Source: Escherichia coli (lineage in GTDB: Bacteria; Pseudomonadota; Gammaproteobacteria; Enterobacterales; Enterobacteriaceae). From it: 64,000 nt of DNA. The notes below the pieces were generated by a model. It saw only the letters and a list, made by a program, of their open reading frames with translations, was not told the DNA's origin and did not search any database. Shown here piece after piece: positions 31,465 to 46,709 of this stretch. The DNA lies in the NCBI RefSeq assembly GCF_003018235.1, contig NZ_CP027437.1. The stretch is one strand, 5' to 3'. Numbering within the stretch: position 1 is the first letter of the stretch; the number at the start of each line of letters is the position of its first letter. The translations under genes were made by a program, and so were the position numbers.

Positions 31465-31788
31465 AGTAAATAGCTGACTTATGGATGTGCTGGGGATTCT
31501 ATGTATTTAGCTGTGGCTTTACCATTACTTTTCCCGTTTTTGACTTAAATAGCAATTTACCCGCCAATTCTTGCTGAACATCTATACTTTTTTTGTATTT
31601 TTATGCGATTCATTGATTTCTGCAGTACGTGCAGGAAGGAATCGCAGAGCAACAGTGAAAGAATATGGTTGCTAATGATTTTATTTGATTGATTTCTTTA
31701 TTGAAAATCAACAATGTGCTTAAAAATCATTCGGGTCGGATTGCCGCGAAAGAAGTGATACACTAGCGCGTCAATATCAGTGCGGTAT

Positions 31789-31827
31789 CAGTATTCAGGT
31801 AGCTGTTGAGCCTGGGGCGGTAGCGTG
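31789..31827 (+). promoter_or_regulatory. JUMPStart sequence with ops element (GGCGGTAGCGTG at 31816-31827) in waaQ operon leader; RfaH antitermination site
   Basis: Exact match to the ops consensus GGCGGTAGnnTG, about 50 nt upstream of waaQ. Confidence 0.7.
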
Positions 31828-31876
31828 CTTTTTCTGCTTCACCTTAATCGGATAATCTCAACAAAAAGAGTTACTT

Positions 31877-32935
31877 GTGGATAAGCCATTTCGAAGAATT
31901 TTGCTCATTAAGATGCGTTTTCATGGGGATATGTTATTAACTACTCCCGTCATTAGTTCGCTGAAAAAAAATTACCCTGACGCAAAAATCGATGTGCTGC
32001 TTTATCAGGACACCATCCCGATCCTGTCTGAAAATCCAGAGATTAACGCGCTCTACGGCATAAAAAATAAAAAAGCAAAAGCCTCAGAAAAAATCGCCAA
32101 CTTTTTTCATCTCATCAAGGTATTACGTGCCAATAAGTATGACCTTATCGTCAATCTTACCGATCAATGGATGGTTGCTATACTGGTTCGCTTATTAAAT
32201 GCCCGTGTGAAAATTTCCCAGGATTATCATCATCGGCAGTCTGCTTTTTGGCGTAAAAGTTTCACCCATTTGGTGCCGTTGCAGGGTGGAAATGTGGTGG
32301 AAAGTAACTTATCCGTGCTGACACCATTGGGACTTGATTCGTTGGTGAAGCAGACAACCATGAGTTACCCGCCTGCAAGCTGGAAACGTATGCGTCGCGA
32401 ACTTGATCACGCTGGTGTTGGACAAAATTATGTGGTTATCCAACCTACGGCGCGGCAAATCTTCAAATGCTGGGACAACGCCAAGTTTTCCGCTGTGATT
32501 GATGCCTTACATGCTCGTGGTTATGAAGTCGTTCTGACGTCCGGCCCAGATAAAGACGATCTGGCCTGCGTCAATGAAATTGCGCAGGGATGCCAGACGC
32601 CACCAGTAACGGCGCTGGCCGGAAAGGTGACCTTCCCGGAACTTGGTGCGTTAATCGATCATGCGCAGCTGTTTATTGGCGTTGATTCCGCACCGGCGCA
32701 TATTGCCGCAGCAGTTAATACGCCGCTGATATCGCTGTTTGGTGCGACAGACCATATTTTCTGGCGTCCCTGGTCAAATAACATGATTCAATTCTGGGCG
32801 GGAGATTACCGGGAAATGCCAACGCGCGATCAGCGTGACCGAAATGAGATGTATCTTTCGGTTATTCCGGCGGCAGATGTCATTGCTGCTGTCGATAAAT
32901 TACTGCCCTCCTCCACGACAGGTACGTCGTTATGA
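31877..32935 (+). CDS. waaQ: LPS heptosyltransferase III
   Basis: GT9 heptosyltransferase; start ambiguous (GTG 31877, TTG 31901 or ATG 31913). Confidence 0.85.
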   Translation: MDKPFRRILLIKMRFHGDMLLTTPVISSLKKNYPDAKIDVLLYQDTIPILSENPEINALYGIKNKKAKASEKIANFFHLIKVLRANKYDLIVNLTDQWMVAILVRLLNARVKISQDYHHRQSAFWRKSFTHLVPLQGGNVVESNLSVLTPLGLDSLVKQTTMSYPPASWKRMRRELDHAGVGQNYVVIQPTARQIFKCWDNAKFSAVIDALHARGYEVVLTSGPDKDDLACVNEIAQGCQTPPVTALAGKVTFPELGALIDHAQLFIGVDSAPAHIAAAVNTPLISLFGATDHIFWRPWSNNMIQFWAGDYREMPTRDQRDRNEMYLSVIPAADVIAAVDKLLPSSTTGTSL

Positions 32936-34056
32936 TCGTTGCTTTTTGTTTATATAAATATTTTCCCTTTGGCGGTTTGCAGCGCGATTTTATGCGTATT
33001 GCTCAGACAGTCGCCGCCCGAGGTCATCATGTTCGGGTTTATACCCAGTCGTGGGAAGGCGAATGCCCTGATGTATTTGAACTGATCAAAGTGCCGGTTA
33101 AATCGCATACCAATCACGGGCGCAATGCGGAGTATTTTGCCTGGGTGCAAAAACATTTACGCGAACATCCCGTCGATAAAGTCGTTGGATTCAACAAAAT
33201 GCCGGGGCTGGACGTTTATTATGCCGCTGATGTTTGTTATGCCGAGAAAGTAGCGCAGGAGAAAGGCTTTTTCTATCGCCTGACGTCACGTTATCGCCAT
33301 TATGCCGCCTTTGAGCGGGCAACCTTCGAACAGGGTAAGCCGACACAGCTGCTGATGCTGACAGATAAGCAAATCGCCGATTTCCAGAAACATTATCAGA
33401 CTGAAGCGGAGCGTTTTCATATTCTGCCACCGGGGATTTACCCTGATCGTAAATATAGCCAGCAGCCAGCCAATAGCCGTGAAATCTTCCGTAAGAAGAA
33501 TGGAATAACCGAACAGCAATATTTATTGTTGCAGGTCGGTTCAGACTTCACGCGTAAAGGTGTCGATCGTTCCATTGAAGCACTTGCTTCGTTACCGGAT
33601 TCGCTGCGCCACAACACATTGCTATATGTTGTTGGGCAGGATAAACCGCGAAAATTTGAGGCGCTGGCAGAAAAACGCGGCGTGCGCAGTAATGTTCACT
33701 TCTTCTCGGGGCGCAACGATGTCTCGGAATTAATGGCGGCGGCGGATTTATTACTGCATCCTGCCTACCAGGAAGCGGCGGGAATTGTGCTGCTGGAAGC
33801 GATTACTGCAGGATTACCGGTACTAACAACAGCCGTTTGTGGCTATGCGCCTTATATTGTCGAGGCCAATTGCGGCGAGGCTATTGCTGAGCCATTCCGC
33901 CAGGAAACATTGAATGAGATTTTACGCAAAGCGTTAACGCAATTTTCATTGCGCCAGGCCTGGGCGGAAAATGCGCGACATTATGCTGATACACAAGATT
34001 TATACAGTCTGCCAGAGAAAGCGGCGGACATCATAACGGGTGGTCTGGATGGTTGA
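32932..34056 (+). CDS. waaG: LPS glucosyltransferase I (GT4)
   Basis: 374 aa [20 protein letters not shown]. Confidence 0.95.
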
Positions 34057-34846
34057 ACTTAAAGAGCCGTTTGCCACGTTATGGCGCGGAAAAGATCCTT
34101 TTGAGGAAGTTAAAACTTTGCAGGGTGAGGTATTTCGTGAACTGGAAACTCGCCGTACTCTACGCTTTGAAATGGCGGGCAAAAGCTATTTTCTCAAATG
34201 GCATCGCGGCACGACCCTGAAAGAGATAATCAAAAATTTACTCTCATTGCGGATGCCAGTATTAGGCGCAGACCGCGAATGGAATGCGATTCATCGACTG
34301 CGGGATGTCGGCGTTGATACTATGTATGGGGTGGCATTCGGCGAAAAAGGCATTAATCCGCTCACCAGAACCTCGTTTATTATAACCGAAGATCTGACAC
34401 CAACCATCAGTCTGGAAGATTACTGTGCTGACTGGGCGACTAACCCACCAGATGTTCGCGTAAAGCGTATGCTTATTAAGCGTGTCGCGACGATGGTGCG
34501 CGATATGCATGCTGCGGGCATTAACCACCGTGACTGTTATATCTGTCATTTCCTGCTGCACTTGCCTTTTTCCGGTAAGGAAGAGGAGTTAAAAATTTCG
34601 GTAATTGACCTGCACCGGGCGCAGCTTCGCACGCGCGTTCCACGTCGTTGGCGCGATAAAGATCTTATAGGGCTTTATTTTTCTTCGATGAATATTGGCC
34701 TGACTCAGCGGGATATCTGGCGGTTTATGAAAGTGTATTTTGTCGCCCCGCTTAAAGACATTCTCAAGCAGGAACAAGGGCTGCTGTCGCAAGCAGAAGC
34801 AAAAGCCACAAAAATCAGGGAAAGAACGATTAGAAAATCGTTGTAA
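34049..34846 (+). CDS. waaP: LPS core heptose(I) kinase
   Basis: 265 aa from [20 protein letters not shown]. Confidence 0.9.
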
Positions 34847-34888
34847 CCCGTAACTTATTTTTGCCAAAATTTTGGATACAGAATAAAT

Positions 34889-35896
34889 ATGTCTCAACTC
34901 AATGATAGTGACATCATCCTTTTTGAGTATAACTTTCATTATCAAAATATAAGATCTAAAAATACTCTTGATATCGCATTTGGTATTGACAGAAATTTTC
35001 TTTTTGGATGTGGTGTAGCCATCGCATCTATTCTATTAAACAATAGCGAAATCTCTTGTGAATTTCATGTTTTCACAGATTATATCAGTGATAAAGACAA
35101 GTTATATTTTTCCGATTTAGCAAAACAATATAATTCAAGAATTAATATTTATGTAATCAATTGTGATAAACTGAAGTCATTACCAAGCACGAAAAACTGG
35201 ACTTACGCAACATATTTTCGATTTATAATTGCAGATTATTTCTATCATAAACATGAAAAAATACTATATCTTGATGCAGATATTGCTTGCAAGGGTAGTA
35301 TTAAAGAACTCTTAGATTATCAATTTTCTCCTAATGAAATTGCCGCAGTTGTAGCTGAAAGAGATGTTGAATGGTGGCAAAATCGAGCCTCGGTATTAAC
35401 TACACCACAGTTAGCTTCTGGATATTTCAATGCTGGTTTTTTACTGATAAATATTGATGAGTGGAATCTAAATAACATTTCGTCAAAAGCTATTGAAATG
35501 TTGCGTGATCCAGATTGGGTAAGTAAAATTACCCACCTTGATCAAGATGTACTGAATGTATTATTGAATGGTAAAGTGAAGTTTATTTCGGGGAAATATA
35601 ATACCCGATATAGTATTAACTACGAATTAAAAGACAAAGTTGATAATCCAGTCAATGATGACACCGTGTTTATACACTATGTGGGACCTACAAAACCCTG
35701 GCATGAGTGGGCTGATTATCCGGTGTCACGTAGTTTTTTGATCGCCAAGGCAGCTTCTCCGTGGAGTAAAGAAGATTTACTTAAACCTGTAAATAGCAAT
35801 CAGTATCGGTATTGTGCAAAACATAAATTTAAACAAAAGCATTATATGGCAGGCATTTTTAATTATTTAAAGTATTATAAAGAAAAATGTTTCTAA
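34889..35896 (+). CDS. waaI: LPS outer-core alpha-1,3-hexosyltransferase (GT8)
   Basis: 335 aa; GT8 motifs (YLDADI, HY.G..KPW); low GC; symbol assumes R3-type order. Confidence 0.65.
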   Translation: MSQLNDSDIILFEYNFHYQNIRSKNTLDIAFGIDRNFLFGCGVAIASILLNNSEISCEFHVFTDYISDKDKLYFSDLAKQYNSRINIYVINCDKLKSLPSTKNWTYATYFRFIIADYFYHKHEKILYLDADIACKGSIKELLDYQFSPNEIAAVVAERDVEWWQNRASVLTTPQLASGYFNAGFLLINIDEWNLNNISSKAIEMLRDPDWVSKITHLDQDVLNVLLNGKVKFISGKYNTRYSINYELKDKVDNPVNDDTVFIHYVGPTKPWHEWADYPVSRSFLIAKAASPWSKEDLLKPVNSNQYRYCAKHKFKQKHYMAGIFNYLKYYKEKCF

Positions 35897-35921
35897 AGAT
35901 TTAAGGTTAAAATAATTCATT

Positions 35922-36629
35922 ATGATATATAATAAAACGATAAACGGATTGAAAGTTTTCATAAAAGATAATGATCCCTTTTATGAGCAAGTTCTGAATG
36001 ACTTTTTAACTTGCAGGGTTAAAACATTAAAAGTTTTTCGTTCTATTGATGATACTAAAGTCATTCTTATTGACACTGCTCGTGGACCTCTTGTACTTAA
36101 AGTTTATGCGCCAAAGCATAAAATGATCGAACGTTTCTTAAAATCTTGCATAAAAAAAGATTATTATGAAAATTTAATTTATCAAACCGATCGGGTACGT
36201 GGTGAAGGCGTTCAATCAATTAATGACTATTTTTTGCTTGCTGAACGTAAAACATTAAATTTCGCGCATTATTATATTATGCTCATTGAGTATATTGAAG
36301 GTGTCGGGTTAAATGAGTATTTGGAAATTTCTGAAGATCTGAAGGATCAATTATCAGAATCGATAAAAGAGCTGCATCAGCATGGAATGGTGTCTGGCGA
36401 TCCTCATAAAGGAAATTTTATAGTATCCGAAAAAGGTTTAAGACTAATTGACCTTTCAGGTAAAAAAACAACCGCTGTTTTAAAAGCAAAAGATCGCATT
36501 GATCTTGAACGGCACTATAATATAAAAAATGAATTGAAAGACTTTGGCTATACATATCTTATATTCAAAAAGAAAATTAAAAAAGTAATCAGGGATGTAA
36601 AAGTCAAACTAGGATTGAAGAGCAAATAA
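35922..36629 (+). CDS. waaY: LPS core heptose(II) kinase
   Basis: 235 aa WaaY/Kdo-kinase-like protein between two GT8 genes. Confidence 0.75.
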   Translation: MIYNKTINGLKVFIKDNDPFYEQVLNDFLTCRVKTLKVFRSIDDTKVILIDTARGPLVLKVYAPKHKMIERFLKSCIKKDYYENLIYQTDRVRGEGVQSINDYFLLAERKTLNFAHYYIMLIEYIEGVGLNEYLEISEDLKDQLSESIKELHQHGMVSGDPHKGNFIVSEKGLRLIDLSGKKTTAVLKAKDRIDLERHYNIKNELKDFGYTYLIFKKKIKKVIRDVKVKLGLKSK

Positions 36630-36653
36630 TGATTATGATGAAGGGTAATTAAA

Positions 36654-37667
36654 TTGGATTTTAAACATCTTACTCAATTTAAAGATATAATTGAACTGGA
36701 CAAGCGCCCTGTTAAACTTGATGAACGGGAAACGTTTAATGTCTCATGGGGTATTGATGAGAACTACCAGGTAGGGGCTGCGATTTCAATTGCTTCAATT
36801 CTTGAAAATAATAAACAAAACAAATTTACCTTTCACATAATCGCTGATTACTTAGACAAAGAGTATATTGAATTATTATCACAATTAGCAACGAAGTATC
36901 AAACAGTAATTAAATTATATCATATTGATTCTGAGCCATTGAAGGCGCTACCTCAATCAAATATCTGGCCAGTATCTATTTATTATCGTTTGCTTTCATT
37001 TGATTATTTTTCTGCGCGATTGGATTCATTATTATATCTTGATGCTGATATCGTCTGTAAGGGTTCATTGAACGAGTTAATAGCATTAGAGTTTAAAGAT
37101 GAATATGGGGCTGTGGTAATTGATGTAGATGCTATGCAAAGTAAAAGCGCTGAGCGTTTATGTAATGAGGATTTTAACGGTAGCTATTTTAACTCTGGTG
37201 TAATGTATATTAATTTACGGGAATGGTTACAACAAAGACTAACGGAGAAATTCTTTGATCTATTATCAGATGAGTCAATTATCAAAAAATTAAAGTATCC
37301 GGATCAAGATATTTTAAACTTAATGTTTTTACATCATGCTAAAATATTACCGAGAAAATATAATTGTATTTATACTATAAAGTCAGAATTTGAAGAAAAA
37401 AATAGTGAATATTACACCCAGTTTATTAATGATGAAACTGTCTTCATACATTATACTGGTGTAACTAAGCCATGGCATGATTGGGCGGACTACGCATCTG
37501 CAGATTATTTCCGTAATATTTATAATATATCTCCATGGAGAAATATACCTTATAAAAAAGCTGTTAAAAAACATGAGTACAAAGAAAAATATAAACACTT
37601 GCTTTACCAGAAAAAATTTCTCGATGGTGTTTTTACAGCAATTAAATATAATGTTATGAAAGGTTAA
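36654..37667 (+). CDS. waaJ: LPS outer-core alpha-1,2-glycosyltransferase (GT8)
   Basis: 337 aa; GT8 motifs; paralog of preceding GT8. Confidence 0.65.
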   Translation: MDFKHLTQFKDIIELDKRPVKLDERETFNVSWGIDENYQVGAAISIASILENNKQNKFTFHIIADYLDKEYIELLSQLATKYQTVIKLYHIDSEPLKALPQSNIWPVSIYYRLLSFDYFSARLDSLLYLDADIVCKGSLNELIALEFKDEYGAVVIDVDAMQSKSAERLCNEDFNGSYFNSGVMYINLREWLQQRLTEKFFDLLSDESIIKKLKYPDQDILNLMFLHHAKILPRKYNCIYTIKSEFEEKNSEYYTQFINDETVFIHYTGVTKPWHDWADYASADYFRNIYNISPWRNIPYKKAVKKHEYKEKYKHLLYQKKFLDGVFTAIKYNVMKG

Positions 37668-37675
37668 TACTCGAG

Positions 37676-38818
37676 ATGGTTGATAAAATAATATTTACAG
37701 TCACTCCTATTTTTTCAATTCCTCCTCGCGGAGCGGCCGCTGTTGAAACGTGGATGTATCAGGTTGCTCAGCGTACCAATTTCCCAAATCGTATTGTTTG
37801 TATCAAGAATCCAGGATACTCAAATTACACCTTTGTTAATGATAATTGTAGTATTCATAGGGTTGGATTCAGTCGCATATATAAGCGGTTATTTCAAAAA
37901 TGGACAAGACTTGATCCTCTTCCATATTCACAGAGAATATTGAATATTGCCCATGATTTTCCTATAACGAAAGAAAGTGTTATTGTAGTTCATAATAGCA
38001 TGAAACTATACACTCAAATTCGTAAGCGAGCTCCTCAGGCAAGAGTGGTTATTCATATGCATAATGCATTTGAACCAAAATTGCTTGAGCAAAATGTTAA
38101 AATGATAGTGCCTAGTTTATACTTGAAAAAGTATTACCAATCTTATTTAGCAAATGCAGATATTGAGATTGTACCAAATGGAATTGATTTAGAAACCTAT
38201 CAATCTACTTTTCAGCCGATCACTAGAAGCGAACTTAATATCTCCCCTGAAGAGAAAATTATTTTTTATGCTGGGCGTATCGTCCCTGATAAAGGCATAT
38301 TACTGTTGATGCAATCATTCGAAAAATTGGCCGCTGCTCACAAAAATTTAAAATTAGTTGTGATTGGTGATTATACAGAAATGAGTAAAAGTGACAAAGG
38401 TGCATATCAACGCAATGTCAGGGAAATTGCAAAACGTTTGAAGGATCGTTGCATTATGTTAGGAAGCATACCGCCTGAAAATATGCATTGTTATTACCCA
38501 CTGGCGGATTTAGTCGTCATTCCTTCCCAGTTCCAGGAACCATTTTGCATGGTGGCAATTGAAGCTATGGGGGCTGGTAAGCCTGTTTTAGTGAGTACGC
38601 GTGGGGGGATGACGGAATTTGTCAAAGAAAATACTACGGGATTCCATTTAAAAGAACCTATGACTGCAGACTCCATAAGCAGCGATATTTTAAAAACGTT
38701 AGCGAATCCTGAATTAACAGCAGTTGCAAAGCAAGGTCAGGATTTTGTGTTTGATCACTACAGTTGGGATGGCGTAACTCAAAGATTTGAAGAGGTTATT
38801 CATAATTGGTTTGAATAA
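37676..38818 (+). CDS. waaD: LPS outer-core glycosyltransferase (GT4; WaaD/WaaK-like)
   Basis: 380 aa; GT4 C-terminal EX7E-type region; last gene before waaL; symbol tentative. Confidence 0.55.
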   Translation: MVDKIIFTVTPIFSIPPRGAAAVETWMYQVAQRTNFPNRIVCIKNPGYSNYTFVNDNCSIHRVGFSRIYKRLFQKWTRLDPLPYSQRILNIAHDFPITKESVIVVHNSMKLYTQIRKRAPQARVVIHMHNAFEPKLLEQNVKMIVPSLYLKKYYQSYLANADIEIVPNGIDLETYQSTFQPITRSELNISPEEKIIFYAGRIVPDKGILLLMQSFEKLAAAHKNLKLVVIGDYTEMSKSDKGAYQRNVREIAKRLKDRCIMLGSIPPENMHCYYPLADLVVIPSQFQEPFCMVAIEAMGAGKPVLVSTRGGMTEFVKENTTGFHLKEPMTADSISSDILKTLANPELTAVAKQGQDFVFDHYSWDGVTQRFEEVIHNWFE

Positions 38819-38825
38819 ATAAAAA

Positions 38826-38848
38826 GGCCGCATTATGCAGCCTTTTTA
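38826..38848. terminator. Bidirectional terminator between convergent waaD-like gene and waaL
   Basis: A5-GGCCGCA...TGCAGCC-T5 hairpin (one mismatch) flanked by A and T runs. Confidence 0.45.
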
Positions 38849-38852
38849 TTTT

Positions 38853-40061
38853 TTACTTGTTTTTCATCGCTAATAATAAGCCGGCGTAAACACCTAATAA
38901 ATTTGGTTCAATTTGTTCTACGTTTCCACGGATAACAAAATAACCTATAAAAGATAGTAAGATTATATAATATGCATTATATGGTGAGCGGTATTTATTC
39001 TGGACGCCATTTTTTATACACTCTTTCAATATTGCACAGTATAGCATCATAAGACTTACCAGCCCTAATAAACCAGTGCCAAACCAGATGAATAGCGCAA
39101 AATTATGTGGCCCTATTGATTGTCTAAAGGTCCATTCTGGATAATCAACGACACGTTTATTATAGACATCTTTATATGCAACGTTACCGTAACCATAACC
39201 AATAACAGGATTCTCTAATATTAGATCGAGTGCGCTGCCTTGAGTACCATTTGCATAGCGATAAGAACTATTAGTTTGTTGAAGTTTATACGTTAGCTTT
39301 GCGGTCATCTCCTTATGTGTGAAAATAACCGACAATGCAATGATGGAAACCATTACTCCTACTAATAGTAACTTCCATTGTTTAAACATCAGAATCCATA
39401 TTAATCCAATGACTAACACGGAAAGCCAGGCCCCTCTGGATAAAGTTCCTAATATCAGAAAAATAAAAATAAAGCTTAGAACCACAAAAGAAATGCGGTA
39501 TTTTGCTGATTTGATAAGCCAGAGATTTAACAATGCAGGGAATAAAAAGACCATCGAGTCAGAAATGCTACGGTGTCTATAATCTGCGAATGGCATTATC
39601 CCTTGTTGATAGTCCTTATAATAGGCAATCAATTCAGAAAAACAGCGTAAGCCCAACGCACTAATAAATGAGAAGAAAACGATTTTTTCGACATCTTCTC
39701 TTTTCTCGTCTCTCAATATGACTGGTATTGCTATTGTGCATAGTAAAGTATTCTCAATAATAGCTTTGAAAATTTCCTTCATGCTAGCCCCTGCATCAGG
39801 GGATTGAAGAAGTGACAGCAATGCAGCAATAGTTAATATGGCAACACTACCAAAAAGAAATGTTTTAAATAGTGAGAGATAATGTTTTGGCCGTTTGCAG
39901 AGATAGACGATTGTCGTTATTGTCATAAGAATAACGATAAGATGTTTATACCTTGTAATCCCACCCAAAAAATAGGTGGTAATGAATAAGAATACGAGAG
40001 CTCTGTTCCAGTACGCTATCCAGTTTTTTTTCTCGAGAGAGAAAAATAATGTTGAGGTCAT
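38853..40061 (-). CDS. waaL: O-antigen ligase
   Basis: 402 aa polytopic membrane protein in the conserved waaL position; start overlaps waaC stop (ATGA). Confidence 0.8.
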   Translation of the reverse strand: MTSTLFFSLEKKNWIAYWNRALVFLFITTYFLGGITRYKHLIVILMTITTIVYLCKRPKHYLSLFKTFLFGSVAILTIAALLSLLQSPDAGASMKEIFKAIIENTLLCTIAIPVILRDEKREDVEKIVFFSFISALGLRCFSELIAYYKDYQQGIMPFADYRHRSISDSMVFLFPALLNLWLIKSAKYRISFVVLSFIFIFLILGTLSRGAWLSVLVIGLIWILMFKQWKLLLVGVMVSIIALSVIFTHKEMTAKLTYKLQQTNSSYRYANGTQGSALDLILENPVIGYGYGNVAYKDVYNKRVVDYPEWTFRQSIGPHNFALFIWFGTGLLGLVSLMMLYCAILKECIKNGVQNKYRSPYNAYYIILLSFIGYFVIRGNVEQIEPNLLGVYAGLLLAMKNK

Positions 40062-41050
40062 CTTATCTCCGATGTCAACTTATTGGTTATTATTTCAAGA
40101 TTTAAATTTTGAAAAACGGTTTGAGCTGGCAAATCTGCAAGAGACATACTTGTAGAACGACACTCTACTTGATTCTTCCCATACCCACCAATTAATCCAG
40201 GATCGGTTGGTCCATAAACCGTGATATTGGGTCTATCCAGTGCCGCCGTTAAATGGCTTAACCCCGTATCCACCGACACTACAAATTTAGCCCCGGCCAG
40301 CACGCGGGCAACGCCTTCCAGACTCATCTTCGGCAATACTTCAACATAAGCAAATCCTTCCGCCAGTCGTTTCGCCCGTTCTTCCTCATGCGGCGCGCCC
40401 CACGGAAGTTTAATCCGTATTCCTGAATCAGCCAGTAAACCAATCAATTCTCGCCAGTGTTCTTCCGGCCAGTGTTTATCATCTCGGGTTGTTGCATGAA
40501 GAAATACGGCATATTCGCCAGCATCTGTAGGCAGGTTCGTCAGGAAATGCTGTGCGATAGCATAATCGCCCTGGGTTTGTGGTTTGCTATAGCCCAGACT
40601 TTTGGCAAACAGTTCGCGGGTGCGTTCTACGGCGTGCTGCTGTTTTGCAATATGATGCTTACGATTGTAAAACAGGCTGGCTAAAGGTTCGCGAGCGGTT
40701 TGCCAGTCCATTCCATGCTTTACGCCATGCGCCAGACGCGTCACCAGCGCCGCGCTTTTTACCAGCCCCTGAGCGTCGATAACTGCGTCATAGTTCTCTG
40801 CTTGTAGCGCTTCACGAAACGCTTTCCGTTCAGCTTTTATGGGGGCCGAGAACCAGGCTTTACGCCAGCGACGTATTGCCACAGGAATAACTCGCTCAAC
40901 AGCGGCGTGCCAGGAAGGAATTTGTGCGAACCCTTCTTCCACCACCCAGTCAAACTTAATCCCCGGGATTGCCTGCTGGGCATCAGTGAGTGCGGGCAAC
41001 GTATGGAGAACATCGCCCATCGACGATGTTTTAACGATCAAAACCCGCAT
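40058..41050 (-). CDS. waaC: LPS heptosyltransferase I
   Basis: 330 aa MRVLIVKTSSMGDVLHTLPALTDA; C-terminal ~30 aa appear to differ from the K-12 protein as remembered. Confidence 0.9.
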   Translation of the reverse strand: MRVLIVKTSSMGDVLHTLPALTDAQQAIPGIKFDWVVEEGFAQIPSWHAAVERVIPVAIRRWRKAWFSAPIKAERKAFREALQAENYDAVIDAQGLVKSAALVTRLAHGVKHGMDWQTAREPLASLFYNRKHHIAKQQHAVERTRELFAKSLGYSKPQTQGDYAIAQHFLTNLPTDAGEYAVFLHATTRDDKHWPEEHWRELIGLLADSGIRIKLPWGAPHEEERAKRLAEGFAYVEVLPKMSLEGVARVLAGAKFVVSVDTGLSHLTAALDRPNITVYGPTDPGLIGGYGKNQVECRSTSMSLADLPAQTVFQNLNLEIITNKLTSEIR

Positions 41051-41053
41051 CCG

Positions 41054-42100
41054 TCAGGCTTCCTCTTGTAACAATAGCGCGTTAAGTTCTTCCAGTACGC
41101 GCTGGGGAGTAATGTCGATCAAGCTCTGGTGATAACCCTCCGCAGCGTCACCTTTACGCACTTTGTGATAGCCGGTAATCAGGCGGATCACGCGTGCTTT
41201 ATGGGATAGCGGCGGTGTGAAGTCCGGGCTACTCGGACCATACAAGGCAACCAGCGGACGATTGAGCGCCGCCGCAACGTGCATCAGGCCAGAATCGTTA
41301 GTGACAATGGCTTTACAGGCTGTAATCAGGATAACCGCTTGATCAAGCTGTGTTTCCCCTGCCAGGTTCCGGCACCATGCCTGCTGCTCGGTATTTAAAG
41401 CGGCAAGAATCTCATTGCCCGCTTCATGATCTTTCGCCGAGCCAAACAGAACCACCTGATAACCTTCATCAATCAGCTGCTTTGCCAGCTCCGCATAGTG
41501 GTAGTGTGGCCAGCGTTTTGCCGGACCAAACTCCGCACCCGGGCAAAAGCCAATCATCGGACGTTCTGATGAAAGCGAAAATTGATTACAGGTATATGAT
41601 TTTTCACCTTCGCTCACCTGCAACTGCGGCCATAACAATGGCTGCGGCAGATCTTGTGCTGTACGCATAATGCCTTTGTCATAGGCCAGCGCGACATAGC
41701 GTTCCACCATTAGCGGCCAGGCTTCTTTATCGAGCACGCGTACATCGTTAAGTAAACCGTAGCGCATCTCGCCGCGCCAGCCGGTGCGATGAGGAATACC
41801 CGCGAAGAAAGGCACTAATGCGGATTTGAAGGAGTTGGGTAAGACGTAGGCGCGGTCGTAGCGCTTTTCACGCAGACTATGACCCAGTTTGCGGCGTTCG
41901 CCGATTTCCAGCGCTCCGTGACCGAGAGGCATAGGAATAGCTTCGTTAACTTCCGGCATCCGCGATAATAATGGACGGCACCATGCCGGTGCCATCACGT
42001 CGATTATCGCCTGGGGATAGCGCGCCTGGAGCGTGCGATAGAGACTTTGCGACATCATCATGTCGCCAACCCAAGACGGGCCGATCACCAGTATTTTCAT
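41054..42100 (-). CDS. waaF: LPS heptosyltransferase II
   Basis: 348 aa MKILVIGPSWVGDMMMSQSLYRTL. Confidence 0.9.
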   Translation of the reverse strand: MKILVIGPSWVGDMMMSQSLYRTLQARYPQAIIDVMAPAWCRPLLSRMPEVNEAIPMPLGHGALEIGERRKLGHSLREKRYDRAYVLPNSFKSALVPFFAGIPHRTGWRGEMRYGLLNDVRVLDKEAWPLMVERYVALAYDKGIMRTAQDLPQPLLWPQLQVSEGEKSYTCNQFSLSSERPMIGFCPGAEFGPAKRWPHYHYAELAKQLIDEGYQVVLFGSAKDHEAGNEILAALNTEQQAWCRNLAGETQLDQAVILITACKAIVTNDSGLMHVAAALNRPLVALYGPSSPDFTPPLSHKARVIRLITGYHKVRKGDAAEGYHQSLIDITPQRVLEELNALLLQEEA

Positions 42101-42109
42101 GCAGAGCTC

Positions 42110-43042
42110 TTATGCGTCGCGATTCAGCCAGGCCATGTATTCCGTTACACCTTCAGCAACGGTTTTGAACGGTTTATCGTAACCCGCCGCGCGCAGATTC
42201 GTCAGATCTGCCTGAGTGAACGCCTGGTAGCGGCCTTTCAGTTTATCCGGGAACGGAATGTATTCGATCTGGCCTTTCTTGTGATAAGCCAGCGTAGCAT
42301 CGGCTACCGCCTGGAAGGATTCCGCACGACCGGTGCCGAGGTTGAAGATGCCGGAAACGCCATTTTCCAGGAACCACAGGTTTACATCTGCCACGTCGCC
42401 TACGTAAACGAAGTCGCGTTTGAAGTTCTCGCTACCTTCAAACAGCTTCGGCGATTCACCGTTGTTAAGCTGAGTGTTGAGATGGAAAGCGACGCTCGCC
42501 ATGCTGCCTTTATGGCCTTCACGCGGTCCATAAACGTTGAAATAGCGGAAGCCAACAATCTGCGAGTTCGCTTCTGGCAGGATTTGACGAACATATTCAT
42601 CAAACAGGAATTTTGAGTAACCGTAGACGTTCAACGGTTTTTCGTACTCGCGGGATTCAATAAAGTCGGAGGTGCGACCGCCGTAAGTGGCCGCGGAAGA
42701 GGCATACAGGAACGGGATTTCGCGTTCCAGACAGTAGTGCAGCAGCTCTTTGGAGTATTGATAGTTGTTATCCATCATATACTTGCCATCCCACTCGGTG
42801 GTGGAAGAGCATGCGCCTTCGTGGAAAATCGCTTCGACATCACCGAACTCTTCGCCAGCCATAATCTGGATCAGGAAGTCTTCCTTATCCATATAGTCCG
42901 CGATATCCAGATCCACCAGGTTCACAAACTTGGTGCCGTCTTTCAGGTTGTCCACCACCAGAATATCGGTGATGCCTTTATCATTCAGGGCCTTAACGAT
43001 GTTGCTGCCGATAAAGCCCGCGCCGCCGGTAACGATGATCAT
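42110..43042 (-). CDS. hldD: ADP-L-glycero-D-manno-heptose 6-epimerase
   Basis: 310 aa [23 protein letters not shown] (Rossmann). Confidence 0.95.
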
Positions 43043-43345
43043 AACTGTAACCTTCGAATTATGGAGTCAGAGACAATCTCAGACACGAATGTCTGTAATC
43101 ATACCATCACATCCGAATCCCTTCAGCCCTTTACATAGAGGTGCAAGGATGCTAATTGCAACAAACTAGTTTGGGTTTTAGCTAGTCCTTCATGGCGGAT
43201 GTTGGTTTTGTATGTGAATAGTGCTTTAGTATCAATATTCCGATGTATGATAAATAACGGAAGCATTTGAATGGATAATATACAGTATACATTCTGTTAA
43301 TATTTATGATATAATTCTTTTTTTATATTAATGGTCTTATTAGTA

Positions 43346-44203
43346 ATGAAATCATCCACCACAATTATCACTGCATATTTTGACATTGGTAGAGGGGATT
43401 GGACTGCTAATAAAGGGTTCCGTGAAAAACTAGCTCGTTCAGTTGATGTTTATTTTAGTTACTTTGAGCGTCTGGCCGCACTTGAAAATGAGATGATTAT
43501 TTTCACTTCTCCCGATTTGAAACCAAGGGTTGAAGCGATTCGCAACGGAAAACCAACAACGGTTATCGTTATCGATATAAAAAAGAAATTTAGATATATC
43601 AGAAGTCGTATCGAAAAAATTCAAAAAGATGAGTCGTTTACAAATAGACTTGAGCCTCGACAATTAAAAAACCCAGAGTACTGGTCACCAGAGTATGTTT
43701 TGGTATGTAACCTTAAGGCCTATTTTGTAAATAAAGCTATCAACATGGGCTTAGTGAAAACTCCTCTTGTTGCGTGGATAGATTTTGGCTATTGCCGTAA
43801 GCCAAATGTAACTCGAGGATTGAAAATTTGGGATTTCCCATTTGATGAAAATAAGATGCATCTTTTCACTATAAAAAAAGGGCTTACTGTCACATCTCAA
43901 CAACAGGCTTTTGATTTCATGATTGGCAATCATGTATATATTATTGGTGGCGCAATTGTTGGTTCACAGCATAAATGGAAAGAATTCTATAAATTAGTTC
44001 TGGAAAGTCAAAAAATAACCCTAAACAATAACATTGTGGACGATGACCAGGGCATCTTTGTCATGTGCTATTACAAACGTTCCGATCTCTTCAACCTAAA
44101 CTATCTGGGGAGAGGAAAATGGTTCGATTTGTTTCGCTGCTTCAGGAGTAACACTTTAGGGGCAAAAATGCAGGCGCTGAGAATTTTCCTTTCAAGAAAA
44201 TAG
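43346..44203 (+). CDS. htrL: HtrL/YibB-family protein
   Basis: 285 aa from MKSSTTIITAYFDIGRGDW; low-GC gene. Confidence 0.8.
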   Translation: MKSSTTIITAYFDIGRGDWTANKGFREKLARSVDVYFSYFERLAALENEMIIFTSPDLKPRVEAIRNGKPTTVIVIDIKKKFRYIRSRIEKIQKDESFTNRLEPRQLKNPEYWSPEYVLVCNLKAYFVNKAINMGLVKTPLVAWIDFGYCRKPNVTRGLKIWDFPFDENKMHLFTIKKGLTVTSQQQAFDFMIGNHVYIIGGAIVGSQHKWKEFYKLVLESQKITLNNNIVDDDQGIFVMCYYKRSDLFNLNYLGRGKWFDLFRCFRSNTLGAKMQALRIFLSRK

Positions 44204-44250
44204 GTTTCCCTCCATTAGTGGGTAGCGTTTTGATACCAAATGAGATTGGA

Positions 44251-44277
44251 AAAATGATGCTCTGGCATCATTTTTTC
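44251..44277 (+). terminator. Rho-independent terminator after htrL
   Basis: AAAATGATGC-TCTG-GCATCATTTT hairpin followed by T-run. Confidence 0.5.
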
Positions 44278-44477
44278 TTTTTATATCAATGCAGTAAAAT
44301 CACTCATCATTATGCCCAGCCAAAACTGTACAGTTTTTCTACTATCTATAGGTGTTGAGAGACATCAAGATTCACGTTATTTATCCTGAATTTTGCAGAA
44401 GTGTTAACGCGTCATCTCGTCGCGACCTATAAGTTTGGGTAATATGTGCTGGAATTTGCCCTGTCTGGAGAATCGCA

Positions 44478-45674
44478 ATGCGTGGAGAATTTTATCAGCA
44501 GTTAACCAACGATCTGGAAACCGCACGGGCGGAAGGGTTGTTTAAAGAAGAGCGCATTATTACGTCTGCGCAGCAAGCAGATATCACTGTGGCTGATGGA
44601 AGCCACGTCATTAACTTTTGTGCCAATAACTATCTCGGACTGGCGAATCATCCGGATCTGATTGCGGCGGCAAAGGCGGGAATGGATTCTCACGGTTTCG
44701 GCATGGCTTCGGTGCGTTTTATTTGCGGCACTCAGGACAGCCATAAAGAGCTTGAACAAAAACTGGCGGCCTTCCTGGGGATGGAAGATGCGATTCTCTA
44801 CTCTTCCTGCTTTGATGCTAACGGTGGCCTGTTCGAAACGCTGTTAGGCGCGGAAGACGCCATTATCTCCGACGCACTGAACCACGCGTCTATTATTGAT
44901 GGTGTGCGTCTGTGCAAAGCTAAACGCTATCGTTATGCCAACAACGATATGCAGGAGCTGGAAGCACGTCTGAAAGAAGCGCGTGAAGCCGGTGCGCGTC
45001 ATGTGCTGATTGCCACCGATGGTGTGTTCTCGATGGACGGCGTGATTGCCAACCTGAAAGGTGTTTGCGATCTCGCAGATAAATATGATGCCCTGGTGAT
45101 GGTAGATGACTCACACGCGGTAGGTTTTGTCGGTGAAAACGGTCGTGGTTCCCATGAATACTGCGATGTGATGGGCCGGGTCGATATTATCACCGGCACG
45201 CTCGGTAAAGCGCTGGGCGGGGCTTCTGGTGGTTATACCGCGGCGCGCAAAGAAGTGGTTGAGTGGCTGCGCCAGCGTTCTCGTCCGTACCTGTTCTCCA
45301 ACTCGCTGGCACCGGCCATTGTTGCCGCTTCCATCAAAGTGCTGGAGATGGTTGAAGCGGGTAGCGAGCTGCGTGACCGTCTGTGGGCGAACGCGCGTCA
45401 GTTCCGTGAGCAAATGTCGGCGGCGGGCTTTACCCTGGCGGGAGCCGATCACGCCATTATTCCGGTCATGCTTGGCGATGCGGTAGTAGCGCAGAAATTT
45501 GCTCGTGAGCTGCAAAAAGAGGGGATTTACGTCACCGGTTTCTTCTATCCGGTCGTTCCGAAAGGTCAGGCGCGTATTCGTACCCAGATGTCTGCGGCGC
45601 ATACCCCTGAGCAAATTACGCGTGCAGTAGAAGCATTCACGCGTATTGGTAAACAACTGGGCGTTATCGCCTGA
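44478..45674 (+). CDS. kbl: 2-amino-3-ketobutyrate CoA ligase (glycine C-acetyltransferase)
   Basis: 398 aa; PLP-dependent enzyme. Confidence 0.95.
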
Positions 45675-45683
45675 GGATGTGAG

Positions 45684-46709
45684 ATGAAAGCGTTATCCAA
45701 ACTGAAAGCGGAAGAGGGCATCTGGATGACCGACGTTCCTGTACCGGAACTCGGGCATAACGATCTGCTGATTAAAATCCGTAAAACAGCCATCTGCGGG
45801 ACTGACGTTCACATCTATAACTGGGATGAGTGGTCGCAAAAAACCATCCCGGTACCGATGGTCGTGGGCCATGAATATGTCGGTGAAGTGGTAGGTATTG
45901 GTCAGGAAGTGAAAGGCTTCAAGATTGGCGATCGCGTTTCTGGCGAAGGCCATATCACCTGCGGTCACTGTCGCAACTGTCGTGGCGGTCGTACCCATCT
46001 GTGCCGCAACACGATCGGCGTCGGCGTTAACCGTCCGGGCTGCTTCGCCGAGTATCTGGTGATTCCGGCGTTCAACGCTTTCAAAATCCCCGACAATATC
46101 TCCGATGATCTGGCTTCCATTTTTGATCCCTTCGGTAACGCCGTGCATACCGCGCTGTCGTTCGATCTGGTGGGTGAAGATGTGCTGGTCTCTGGTGCAG
46201 GCCCGATTGGTATTATGGCGGCGGCGGTGGCGAAACACGTTGGTGCACGTAACGTGGTGATTACTGATGTTAACGAATACCGCCTTGAGTTGGCGCGTAA
46301 AATGGGTATCACCCGTGCGGTTAACGTCGCTAAAGAGAACCTCAATGATGTGATGGCAGAACTGGGCATGACCGAAGGCTTTGATGTCGGTCTGGAAATG
46401 TCCGGTGCGCCACCAGCGTTTCGTACCATGCTCGACACCATGAACCACGGCGGTCGTATTGCGATGCTGGGTATTCCACCGTCTGATATGTCTATCGACT
46501 GGACCAAAGTGATCTTTAAAGGCTTGTTCATTAAAGGTATTTACGGTCGTGAGATGTTTGAAACCTGGTACAAGATGGCGGCGCTGATTCAGTCTGGCCT
46601 CGATCTTTCGCCGATCATTACCCATCGTTTCTCTATCGATGATTTCCAGAAGGGCTTTGACGCCATGCGTTCGGGCCAGTCCGGGAAAGTTATCCTGAGC
46701 TGGGATTAA
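45684..46709 (+). CDS. tdh: L-threonine 3-dehydrogenase
   Basis: 341 aa zinc-ADH family ([18 protein letters not shown]). Confidence 0.95.

Follow-up and report, generated by a model that had tools for sequence, protein, structure and literature searches.

The last 112 nt of waaC in the E. coli strain analysed here very probably belong to the low-GC core-type cassette of the waa (LPS core) locus, the core types being exchanged by homologous recombination in conserved flanks. A single waaC body is common to all E. coli, and the tail of each core type is linked to its own downstream DNA; from this arrangement we infer that core types have been exchanged between strains by homologous recombination, a process read from patterns rather than from a directly seen transfer event. 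The junction is a minor feature of a much-studied locus. All coordinates refer to the window, i.e. the whole stretch of 64,000 nt that was analysed.

The waaC gene and its product

40058..41050, minus strand: waaC (rfaC) coding sequence from the ORF listing, 330 codons and a stop, specifying the R3-type heptosyltransferase I
38853..40061, minus strand: waaL, R3-type O-antigen ligase of 402 aa (Pfam Wzy_C, PF04932)
41054..43042, minus strand: waaF and gmhD (rfaD), conserved genes that precede waaC in its operon, putative homologous flank for cassette exchange

The waaC product of the window ends in ...GKNQVECRSTSMSLADLPAQTVFQNLNLEIITNKLTSEIR (ORF 40058..41050, minus strand) and its gene is identical in length to the 993-nt rfaC of the RefSeq O157:H7 annotation, whereas K-12 (JM109) RfaC has 319 aa and ends in ...GKNQMVCRAPRENLINLNSQAVLEKLSSL; the size difference reported in the first-pass annotation, 330 against about 319 aa, is therefore correct. 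The protein scored 634.5 bits on the NCBIfam RfaC equivalog NF008204 (cut-off 437), on which K-12 WaaC obtained a slightly lower 631.5 bits, and 431.8 bits on TIGR02193 (cut-off 185.3), and the GT9 domain PF01075 matched its residues 76-315 (E = 1.9e-81). Asp13, named as the catalytic base of heptosyltransferase I (PMC5713226), is present in the window protein and was invariant in the alignment of 40 enterobacterial WaaC sequences. Given that residues 1-294 are 100% identical to the K-12 protein, the window WaaC would be expected to transfer heptose from ADP-heptose to Kdo2-lipid A. The gmhD-waaF-waaC operon order (42110-43042, 41054-42100 and 40058-41050, all on the minus strand) is the same as in the K-12 and O157:H7 annotations.

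Homology within waaC ends at codon 294

40170..41050, minus strand: conserved waaC body, nt 1-881 (residues 1-294), common to E. coli as a species and with core-genome GC (52%)
40058..40169, minus strand: R3-specific waaC tail, nt 882-993 (residues 295-330 plus stop), 112 nt of low GC (34%), probably part of the exchangeable cassette

Along nt 1-881 waaC has 98.4% DNA identity to K-12, and beyond nt 881 this value drops to about 50%, the R3 tail having 28% protein identity to its K-12 counterpart; the body has a GC content of 52.2%, the tail one of 33.9%. The transition is sharp, as 30-nt bins compared with K-12 gave 46.7% identity at 40140-40169, 96.7% at 40170-40199 and 100% in the next nine, to 40469. 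Maximum chi-square scans against K-12, R1, R2 and R4 placed the break after nt 881 (window 40170|40169, third base of codon 294) with chi2 values of 158-427; in the K-12 comparison 14 of 881 nt mismatched to the left of the break and 42 of 76 nt to its right (chi2 = 366), and a related binomial estimate put the chance of 39 or more mismatches in 79 nt, given the mismatch rate of the body, at P about 2e-48. The same scan set the breaks among K-12, R1, R2 and R4 themselves after nt 896-900. The body diverged from the representatives of these four types by 1.6-4.2% at the DNA level, the tail by 44-62% (ungapped mismatch). Of 5426 complete E. coli genomes searched by megablast, 5423 had waaC, the match ending at query nt 881 or 884 in non-R3 genomes and covering nt 1-993 only in R3 genomes. 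These data agree with the proposal of the first-pass annotation that the WaaC C-terminus is divergent and that the junction between conserved and type-specific sequence lies inside the waaC 3' end, yet with two adjustments: the divergent span, set at 40058-40180, is real but 11 nt shorter (40058-40169), and the canonical N-terminal part comprises 294 rather than 290 aa. The alignment with the WaaC proteins of the different core types likewise revealed no shared C-terminus, all five types having different tails.

At the protein level, mean column identity among the 40 enterobacterial sequences was 0.92 for residues 1-294 versus 0.535 for residues 295-330, WaaC being invariant through N293-Q294 across enterobacteria. 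Identity to the window protein flips within the gene: in the body it is 100% for K-12 and 86% for Atlantibacter hermannii, whereas in the tail it is 28% for K-12, 46% for R2 and 70% for A. hermannii. Homology stops at nt 881, but a crossover need not have taken place there; crossovers probably occur at any point of the conserved flank. Between two R3 genomes, those of the window and O157, 17 mismatches are found in nt 1-567 and 2 in nt 568-990, a clustering expected if a flank of variable length travels with the cassette. Over nt 1-879 the differences from the window amount to 14 for K-12, 17 for R1, 19 for O157 (R3), 21 for R4 and 37 for R2, which suggests that the genealogy of the body is independent of core type among the six representatives compared.

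As a counterpoint, the break is also where the invariant part of the protein ends in all genera examined, and a GC drop at about codon 294 recurs in Atlantibacter, Citrobacter and two further enterobacterial loci; selective constraint, rather than any property of recombination, may therefore be the main determinant of where the break lies. Chi sites (14 in the window, none within 31512-46409) were considered and dropped as an explanation for the junction, the flanking ones not being oriented or positioned to account for the break.

Anatomy of the R3 tail and the waaL junction

40091..40168, minus strand: WaaC residues 295-320, family-collinear part of the tail, predicted last beta-strand and C-terminal helix
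40061..40090, minus strand: WaaC residues 321-330 (ITNKLTSEIR), true C-terminal extension across the waaL initiation region, past the profile match
40076..40078, minus strand: TTG (Leu325), aligned with the TAG stop of A. hermannii waaC
40067..40070, minus strand: GGAG, waaL Shine-Dalgarno, 5 nt upstream of the waaL ATG and within waaC codons 327-328
40058..40061, minus strand: ATGA overlap between the waaC stop (TGA) and the waaL start (ATG), from ORF coordinates; the same overlap is annotated in O157:H7

The tail had been described at first as divergent or extended. It is divergent with respect to the other E. coli core types, and an extension is found in residues 321-330; otherwise, the R3 tail reads as the canonical, homologous WaaC C-terminus for the family. 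Residues 1-320 of the window protein aligned onto positions 1-320 of the 322 in the NF008204 profile, and a C297...L304...V pattern is common to WaaC tails across genera. An AF2 model placed a strand at residues 294-297 and a helix from residue 309, with pLDDT values of 83 and 76 for residues 301-320 and 41 for residues 321-330; this model was built on a shallow 40-sequence alignment and is poor as a whole (mean pLDDT 61.5), and it was used for the local structure and confidence of the tail alone. The tail is predicted, in part from what is generally known of GT-B enzymes, to form the last beta-strand and the C-terminal helix of the GT9/GT-B fold.

The true extension of R3 WaaC consists of residues 321-330 only; the collinear stretch holds the stop codon and spacer in A. 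hermannii and the intergenic spacer in R2. In the DNA alignment of the junction R3 has AAG TTG ACA versus AAG TAG ATA in A. hermannii. The 330-aa length can thus be attributed to R3-like tails being longer (325 aa in A. hermannii) together with the TTG at the position of the A. hermannii TAG, by which translation continues through the waaL Shine-Dalgarno to the TGA overlapping the waaL ATG. The GGAG motif is kept at the same place in R2, A. hermannii and a further enterobacterial locus (L011). The ATGA overlap probably couples waaL translation to that of waaC. A promoter/terminator scan of 38700-41200 detected no minus-strand promoter-like site for waaL and no excess of sites over shuffled sequence.

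Linkage of waaC tails to core-type cassettes

31512..40169, no strand assigned: block diverging from K-12, in which waaQGP retain 62-82% DNA identity and the outer-core genes match little or not at all in DNA

As read from its genes, the window carries an R3-type waa locus: the ORFs 3' of waaL (37676-38818, 36654-37667, 35922-36629 and 34889-35896) agree with the O157:H7 annotation, and the R3 downstream set includes a 380-aa GT4 N-acetylglucosaminyltransferase, GT8 transferases and waaY. The diverging block was delimited by blastn and binned identity between the window and the K-12 locus (L008), and positions 40170-45137 on its conserved side have 97.9% DNA identity to K-12. Each of the five core types (K-12, R1, R2, R3 and R4) has its own WaaC tail, in proteins of 318-330 aa. 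With at least 80% coverage of a tail-plus-downstream query as the counting threshold, these haplotypes were found in 1031 (K-12), 1831 (R1), 500 (R2), 1362 (R3) and 692 (R4) genomes, together 5416 of the 5423 complete genomes with waaC. Tail and downstream cassette are therefore almost perfectly linked, and the R3 tail, though genuine, is commonplace: about one in four sequenced E. coli carries it. The R3 tail and the first part of waaL showed at least 95% identity in 1362 genomes; across the tail and the initial 298 nt of waaL, DNA identity to O157:H7 EDL933, O55:H7 and O104:H4 was 99.3%. A natural chimeric tail, R1 in nt 882-929 and R3 thereafter, occurs in the O157:H7 TR01 assembly (NZ_CP033605.1), which suggests that exchange inside the tail can occur.

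The waaL allele serves as a marker for in silico core typing; waaDFC and waaA have core GC and flank a low-GC centre acquired by homologous recombination, and core types are unevenly spread over phylogroups (PMC8715443). Our search of literature full text found no statement on an intragenic waaC junction, the original papers on the R1-R4 loci lying outside that search. These loci were reportedly first sequenced by the Whitfield laboratory in 1998-2000.

Probable origin of the mosaic waaC gene

The exchange of core-type cassettes would take two crossovers, one at any point of the conserved gmhD-waaF-waaC body and one in the waaA-waaQ intergenic region or beyond it. Recombination would keep the waaC body homogeneous species-wide up to the end of homology, which coincides with the point where strong constraint on the enzyme ceases (N293-Q294). 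The constraint on the tail is sparse (C297, L304 and a hydrophobic repeat), so that ancient cassette lineages could have diverged freely.

An improbable alternative is functional specialisation, in which each C-terminal helix has co-evolved with type-specific partners, for example WaaL or outer-core transferases within a membrane-associated complex, and selection holds the tail together with its cassette. The nearly perfect linkage in 5416 of 5423 genomes fits this idea, as do the good conservation of tails within type (1132 of 1363 R3 genomes at least 99% identical) and the finding of one chimera among 5426 genomes. Nonetheless, the physical proximity of the tail to the cassette (0-70 nt) accounts for this association without selection, Kdo2-lipid A is, by established pathway knowledge, the WaaC acceptor in all core types, the tail is the least conserved part of WaaC in all genera and the TR01 chimera occurs in an assembled O157:H7 genome. 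Even harder to sustain, and in our judgement very improbable, is that the tails diverged in place by relaxed constraint without horizontal exchange, the uniform body being due to vertical descent combined with a very fast tail. The WaaC tail is indeed weakly constrained in all enterobacteria and other genera show the same conservation and GC boundary, but E. coli tails share 28-46% protein and about 50-58% DNA identity with each other, whereas that of R3 shares 70% and 74.5% with another genus, the bodies differing only by 1.6-4.2% despite this divergence; moreover, body genealogy is not followed by core type in the six representatives, and core types are unevenly distributed over phylogroups (PMC8715443). 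Finally, an artefact or lesion (frameshift, sequencing error or decaying gene), for which nothing but the length difference from K-12 (330 versus 319 aa) would speak, has a negligible likelihood, the frameshift or pseudogene reading being refuted by the occurrence of the same tail in 1362 complete genomes, where it is annotated as intact RfaC, by the in-frame RfaC profile alignment to position 320 of 322, by in-frame homologues of the R3 tail in other genera and by DNA identity of about 50% to the other tails, where a frameshift would have left near-identity in the shifted frame.

Wider significance

Besides the exchange of cassettes among E. coli strains by homologous recombination, it is tempting to speculate that the codon-294 boundary is an old edge of the outer-core cassette across the Enterobacteriaceae, with the E. 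coli core types as pre-genus alleles maintained by balancing selection and shuffled by recombination in waaC, a tentative proposal towards which we remain slightly sceptical. A GC drop at about the same codon is seen in all loci examined (E. coli K-12, R1 and R3, Atlantibacter, C. braakii and two further enterobacterial loci), and WaaC conservation collapses at about codon 294 in E. coli R1-R4/K-12 and 35 other enterobacterial sequences. If this were true, the E. coli R3 cassette would belong, together with its tail, to a trans-generic family of such cassettes sharing 65-75% protein identity, in contrast to the published claim that the variable region has no homologue outside Escherichia and Shigella. 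The clear relatives of the R3 cassette in Atlantibacter and Citrobacter bear on the origin of the E. coli core types.

For annotation purposes, WaaC length and C-terminus vary by core type, and the divergent R3 end is neither an error nor a new enzyme. The right-hand edge of the exchangeable waa cassette is fixed at window 40169/40170, a position useful for core-typing primers, recombination analyses and engineered core-type swaps. The existence in one species of five natural C-terminal versions of HepI, a candidate antibiotic target, suggests that its last helix tolerates substitution.

Comparison with known systems

The closest known counterpart is the RfaC of O157:H7 and other strains with an R3 core (WP_001264548.1), like the window protein in its 330-aa length, tail and ATGA overlap with rfaL, and the O157:H7 locus has the same downstream N-acetylglucosaminyltransferase and alpha-1,2-glucosyltransferase genes. 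Residue 292 is K in the window and E in O157:H7, and there are 19 nt differences in the body, mostly in nt 1-567; the two share a core type but differ in strain background. The crystallised E. coli heptosyltransferase I (PDB 2GT1, 2H1F/2H1H and 6DFE) has 326 aa and an R1-type tail; its chains are nearly identical to window residues 1-294, and the GT9/GT-B fold and catalytic Asp13 are common to both. The 319-aa K-12 WaaC differs from residue 295 to its end (28% identity) and lacks the 10-residue extension.

Outside E. coli, the loci of A. hermannii (L009/L010), C. braakii (L013) and L011 have the gene order of the window, waaC-waaL-380-aa GT4-GT8-waaY-GT8-waaP, with waaY only in L011, and their proteins share 65-69% (WaaL), 73-74% (GT4) and 67-75% (GT8) identity with those of the window. 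The WaaC tails of A. hermannii and L011 are of the VECRS...L.DL.A.TVF type, that of C. braakii being more distant (42%), and GC drops at the tail in all three, as in the window. Unlike the comparisons within E. coli, their waaC bodies (86-87% protein identity, and about 76% at the DNA level for A. hermannii and L011) show no intragenic step, the whole gene having diverged; DNA identity between the window and A. hermannii is 75.7% in the body, 74.5% in the tail and 65.3% in waaL. In A. hermannii and C. braakii the waaC stop precedes waaL by 14 nt; in L011 the two genes overlap by 10 nt. A 43-aa tail alone as protein query retrieved from a 90%-identity clustered database six E. coli/Shigella fragments and nothing else, because full-length R3 WaaC is clustered there under representatives with other tails; related tails were recovered by searching with full-length WaaC. 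Two of the 90%-cluster representatives (P0027 and P0123), with 96.6% identity in the body and 32% in the tail, resembled a second within-species mosaic, a candidate rejected at the DNA level by comparing L012 (P0123) with C. braakii L013 (P0101, with a tail nearly identical to that of P0027): their waaC bodies differ by 15.8% and thus belong to different species.

Other surface-polysaccharide loci, such as the O-antigen cluster that E. coli carries between galF and gnd, hold a low-GC cassette exchanged by homologous recombination, and their flanks carry hitch-hiking polymorphism. The waa cassette is likewise a low-GC variable cassette between conserved recombining flanks (PMC8715443). Unlike in those loci, however, its edge lies inside a coding sequence, so that an enzyme of an essential pathway is a mosaic with five alternative C-termini.

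The waaC gene and the break near its 3' end

The genes at the inner-core side of this R3-type waa locus are arranged as follows:
40058..41050, minus strand: waaC/rfaC, an ORF of 330 aa
41054..42100, minus strand: waaF, upstream of waaC
42110..43042, minus strand: gmhD, upstream of waaC
38853..40061, minus strand: waaL, 402 aa, its start overlapping the waaC stop in ATGA

The encoded protein is WaaC/RfaC: it reaches 634.5 bits with the NCBIfam equivalog NF008204 (cut-off 437), matches Pfam GT9 over residues 76-315, and has the catalytic Asp13. Its residues 1-315 also align with the crystal-structure chains of E. coli heptosyltransferase I (2GT1, 2H1F and 6DFE), the sequences being nearly identical as far as Q294. 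The R3 allele is already present in the RefSeq annotation (WP_001264548.1, O157:H7). The first-pass annotation had described a divergent or extended C-terminus, and the residues it quoted are indeed the end of the 330-aa ORF. RfaC of K-12 (JM109), of 319 aa, ends in ...GKNQMVCRAPRENLINLNSQAVLEKLSSL and the window protein in ...GKNQVECRSTSMSLADLPAQTVFQNLNLEIITNKLTSEIR; the tail is thus unlike that of K-12 and the protein longer, as had been noticed.

Megablast with the window gene retrieved waaC from 5423 of 5426 complete E. coli genomes. The match stops at query nt 881 (window 40170) in most of them and at 884 in some, extending over the full nt 1-993 only in genomes such as O157:H7 and O111. 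In 30-nt bins, identity to K-12 is 46.7% at 40140-40169 vs 96.7% at 40170-40199, and 100% in nine further bins, to 40469. GC falls from ~52% to ~35% across the junction stretch, the overall values being 52.2% for the body (residues 1-294) and 33.9% for the tail (residues 295-330). A maximum chi-square scan set the break after nt 881 against K-12, R1, R2 and R4 (chi2 = 158-427), with 14/881 mismatches to K-12 to its left and 42/76 to its right. The suspected junction in the waaC 3' end is located by the chi-square break and by the fall of both identity and GC at the same place.

The window is 97-100% identical to K-12 from 26112 to ~31511 (through waaA) and again over 40170-45137, whereas between ~31511 and 40170 identity is down to 62-82% in waaQGP and the outer-core genes can scarcely be aligned. 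The right edge of this divergent block, inside waaC, is far sharper than its graded left side. On that left side (31512-34900) divergence begins in the waaA-waaQ intergenic region, DNA identity being graded over waaQ, waaG and waaP, with a further drop near the waaP 3' end (~34740).

Five core types, five tails

One representative was fetched per core type, the type being recognised from the genes downstream of waaC.

WaaC in representatives of the five E. coli core types (type, strain: downstream genes; WaaC length)
K-12, JM109: waaL, waaU; 319 aa
R3, O157:H7: rfaL, N-acetylglucosaminyltransferase; 330 aa
R1, ATCC 8739: convergent ligase, GT2; 323 aa
R2, O78 and D4: rfaL, N-acetylglucosaminyltransferase; 318 aa
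R4, MMC-J-0078: convergent ligase, GT25; 319 aa

Aligned with K-12 and R1-R4, the WaaC C-terminus proved not to be conserved across core types. The stretch ...GGYGKNQ is common to all five and the sequences differ beyond it: R3 diverges from the third base of codon 294, and K-12, R1, R2 and R4 have xVCRAP in common, separating from one another after nt 896-900. Queries of 409-410 nt from nt 882, comprising the tail and downstream DNA and counted at >=80% coverage, assigned 1362 genomes to R3, 1031 to K-12, 1831 to R1, 500 to R2 and 692 to R4. Since these haplotypes together cover 5416 of the 5423 waaC-bearing genomes, tail and downstream cassette are almost perfectly linked, and E. coli is described by five tail-cassette haplotypes.

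The waaC body is uncoupled from core type, its differences from the window over nt 1-879 numbering 14 in K-12, 17 in R1, 19 in O157 (R3), 21 in R4 and 37 in R2. Of the 19 waaC positions at which the window departs from O157:H7, also R3, 17 fall in nt 1-567 (window 40484-41050) and only 2 in nt 568-990. A cassette carrying along a conserved flank of variable length would produce such clustering; the data suggest, with modest support (chi2 = 8), that ~300 nt of flank travelled with it. Because the R3-R3 differences are clustered, we take nt 881 to mark where homology ends, the crossovers themselves having occurred at various points along the flank. In O157:H7 TR01 (NZ_CP033605.1, locus 620-1612) nt 1-863 are identical to K-12 and the WaaC tail, ...GKNQMVCRAPGNELSQLTAKTVFQNLNLEIITNKLTSEIR, is chimeric, R1 over nt 882-929 and R3 thereafter. 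This junction is unique (1/5426 genomes) and may reflect an infrequent crossover inside the tail or, alternatively, an error of assembly.

The R3 tail and its extension

The R3 tail is a normal WaaC C-terminus and not foreign sequence. It aligns to the RfaC family model through position 320/322, the window scoring slightly above K-12 (634.5 vs 631.5 bits), and its pattern VECRS...L.DLPA.TVF is often seen in the 120 WaaC cluster representatives of other enterobacteria, R3-like tails being found in Leclercia (LECRSANKMLANLPASTVFDQLTSKF), Citrobacter (VECRSASRNLTDLPASAVFELLVSNL) and Atlantibacter hermannii (VECRSVSKDLADLSASTVFEQLNVEIINTHK). In a 40-sequence WaaC alignment residues ~279 to Q294 are all invariant or nearly so, only C297 and L304 are near-invariant beyond, and column identity averages 0.92 over residues 1-294 vs 0.535 over 295-330. 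The C-terminal helix of GT-B enzymes conventionally packs back onto the N-terminal domain. The AF2 prediction is of low overall quality (mean pLDDT 61.5); it places a strand at residues 294-297 and starts a helix at 309, and its pLDDT, 83 and 76 over residues 301-320, drops to 41 over 321-330.

The family profile does not extend to residues 321-330 (ITNKLTSEIR). When the junctions are aligned, A. hermannii waaC ends in ...AAG TAG, its stop 14 nt upstream of the waaL ATG, and R3 reads AAG TTG ACA TCG GAG ATA AGA TGA, the stop being lost through a one-base difference at 40076-40078 (TTG vs TAG). The R3 frame continues through two further features:
40067-40070, minus strand: waaL Shine-Dalgarno GGAG, traversed by the waaC frame
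40058-40061, minus strand: TGA of waaC overlapping the waaL ATG, where the frame ends

The R2 gene stops earlier still than that of A. hermannii and is followed by a 38-nt spacer; in another enterobacterial locus, L011, the waaC frame overlaps waaL by 10 nt. The stop position therefore drifts within this family, which argues for an unconstrained extreme C-terminus. The ATGA overlap suggests that waaL translation is coupled to waaC.

Other features of the window

On the operon's far side, htrL/yibB (43331-44203, plus strand) adjoins gmhD in the window, K-12 and O157:H7 and is missing there from the R1, R2 and R4 representatives (L003-L006), where the neighbour is kbl, a second presence/absence polymorphism. 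Both R2 genomes have a longer annotated rfaD (981 vs 933 nt). A 1350-aa ORF (59777-63829, minus strand) contains about four 234-nt tandem repeats (62171-63334, 94% matches), each with the Chi octamer GCTGGTGG (62393, 62627, 62861, 63095, 63302), and may be a candidate repetitive surface adhesin.

Relatives of the R3 cassette and comparison with the known locus

Over WaaC residues 1-294 identity to the window is 100% in K-12, 99.3% in R2 and 86% in A. hermannii; over residues 295-330 it is 28%, 46% and 70%, respectively. In A. hermannii (L009/L010) the genes run in the order waaC, waaL, 380-aa GT4, GT8, GT8, waaP, waaG, waaQ, with protein identities to the window of 69% (WaaL), 74% (GT4) and 75% and 71% (GT8), WaaL of E. 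coli R2 and K-12 reaching 52% and 25%. Similar R3-like cassettes occur in Citrobacter braakii (L013) and in L011 (Logan ERR11010859), where waaY is part of it. All three share the outer-core gene order of the window (WaaL 65-69%, GT4 73-74%, GT8 67-75% identity), and no other E. coli core type comes as close to it. The DNA comparison with A. hermannii runs without a step (body 75.7%, tail 74.5%, waaL 65.3%), so the R3 tail is further from the other E. coli tails than from that of A. hermannii. A divergent R3 tail on a species-uniform waaC body is the mark of an old cassette allele attached to a homogenised body.

In the window, L009, L011, L013 and a further enterobacterial locus (L012), the waaC body has a computed GC of 52-59% and the tail one of 33-43%, and the K-12 and R1 loci (L001, L003) show the same fall at the junction in 60-nt bins. 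Given this drop in other loci, the composition boundary at codon ~294 is not peculiar to E. coli R3.

Our literature search, which left the original locus papers of 1998-2000 outside, found no publication placing the junction inside waaC. The first-pass observation was real and its interpretation correct, but the intragenic junction is one detail of a locus that is already well characterised. The additions are modest: the exact junction with its statistics, a tail shown to be homologous and family-typical, an explanation of the 10-residue extension and, in Atlantibacter and Citrobacter, cassettes related to that of R3 at the protein level. E. hermannii is not typable with the DNA-based tool of a 2025 typing paper (PMC13293308). 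Leclercq et al. 2021 (PMC8715443) described waaDFC and waaA at core-genome GC, with a low-GC variable centre acquired via homologous recombination. They also reported this central region to be without homologue outside Escherichia and Shigella, a statement with which the R3-like cassettes of A. hermannii, C. braakii and L011 contrast.
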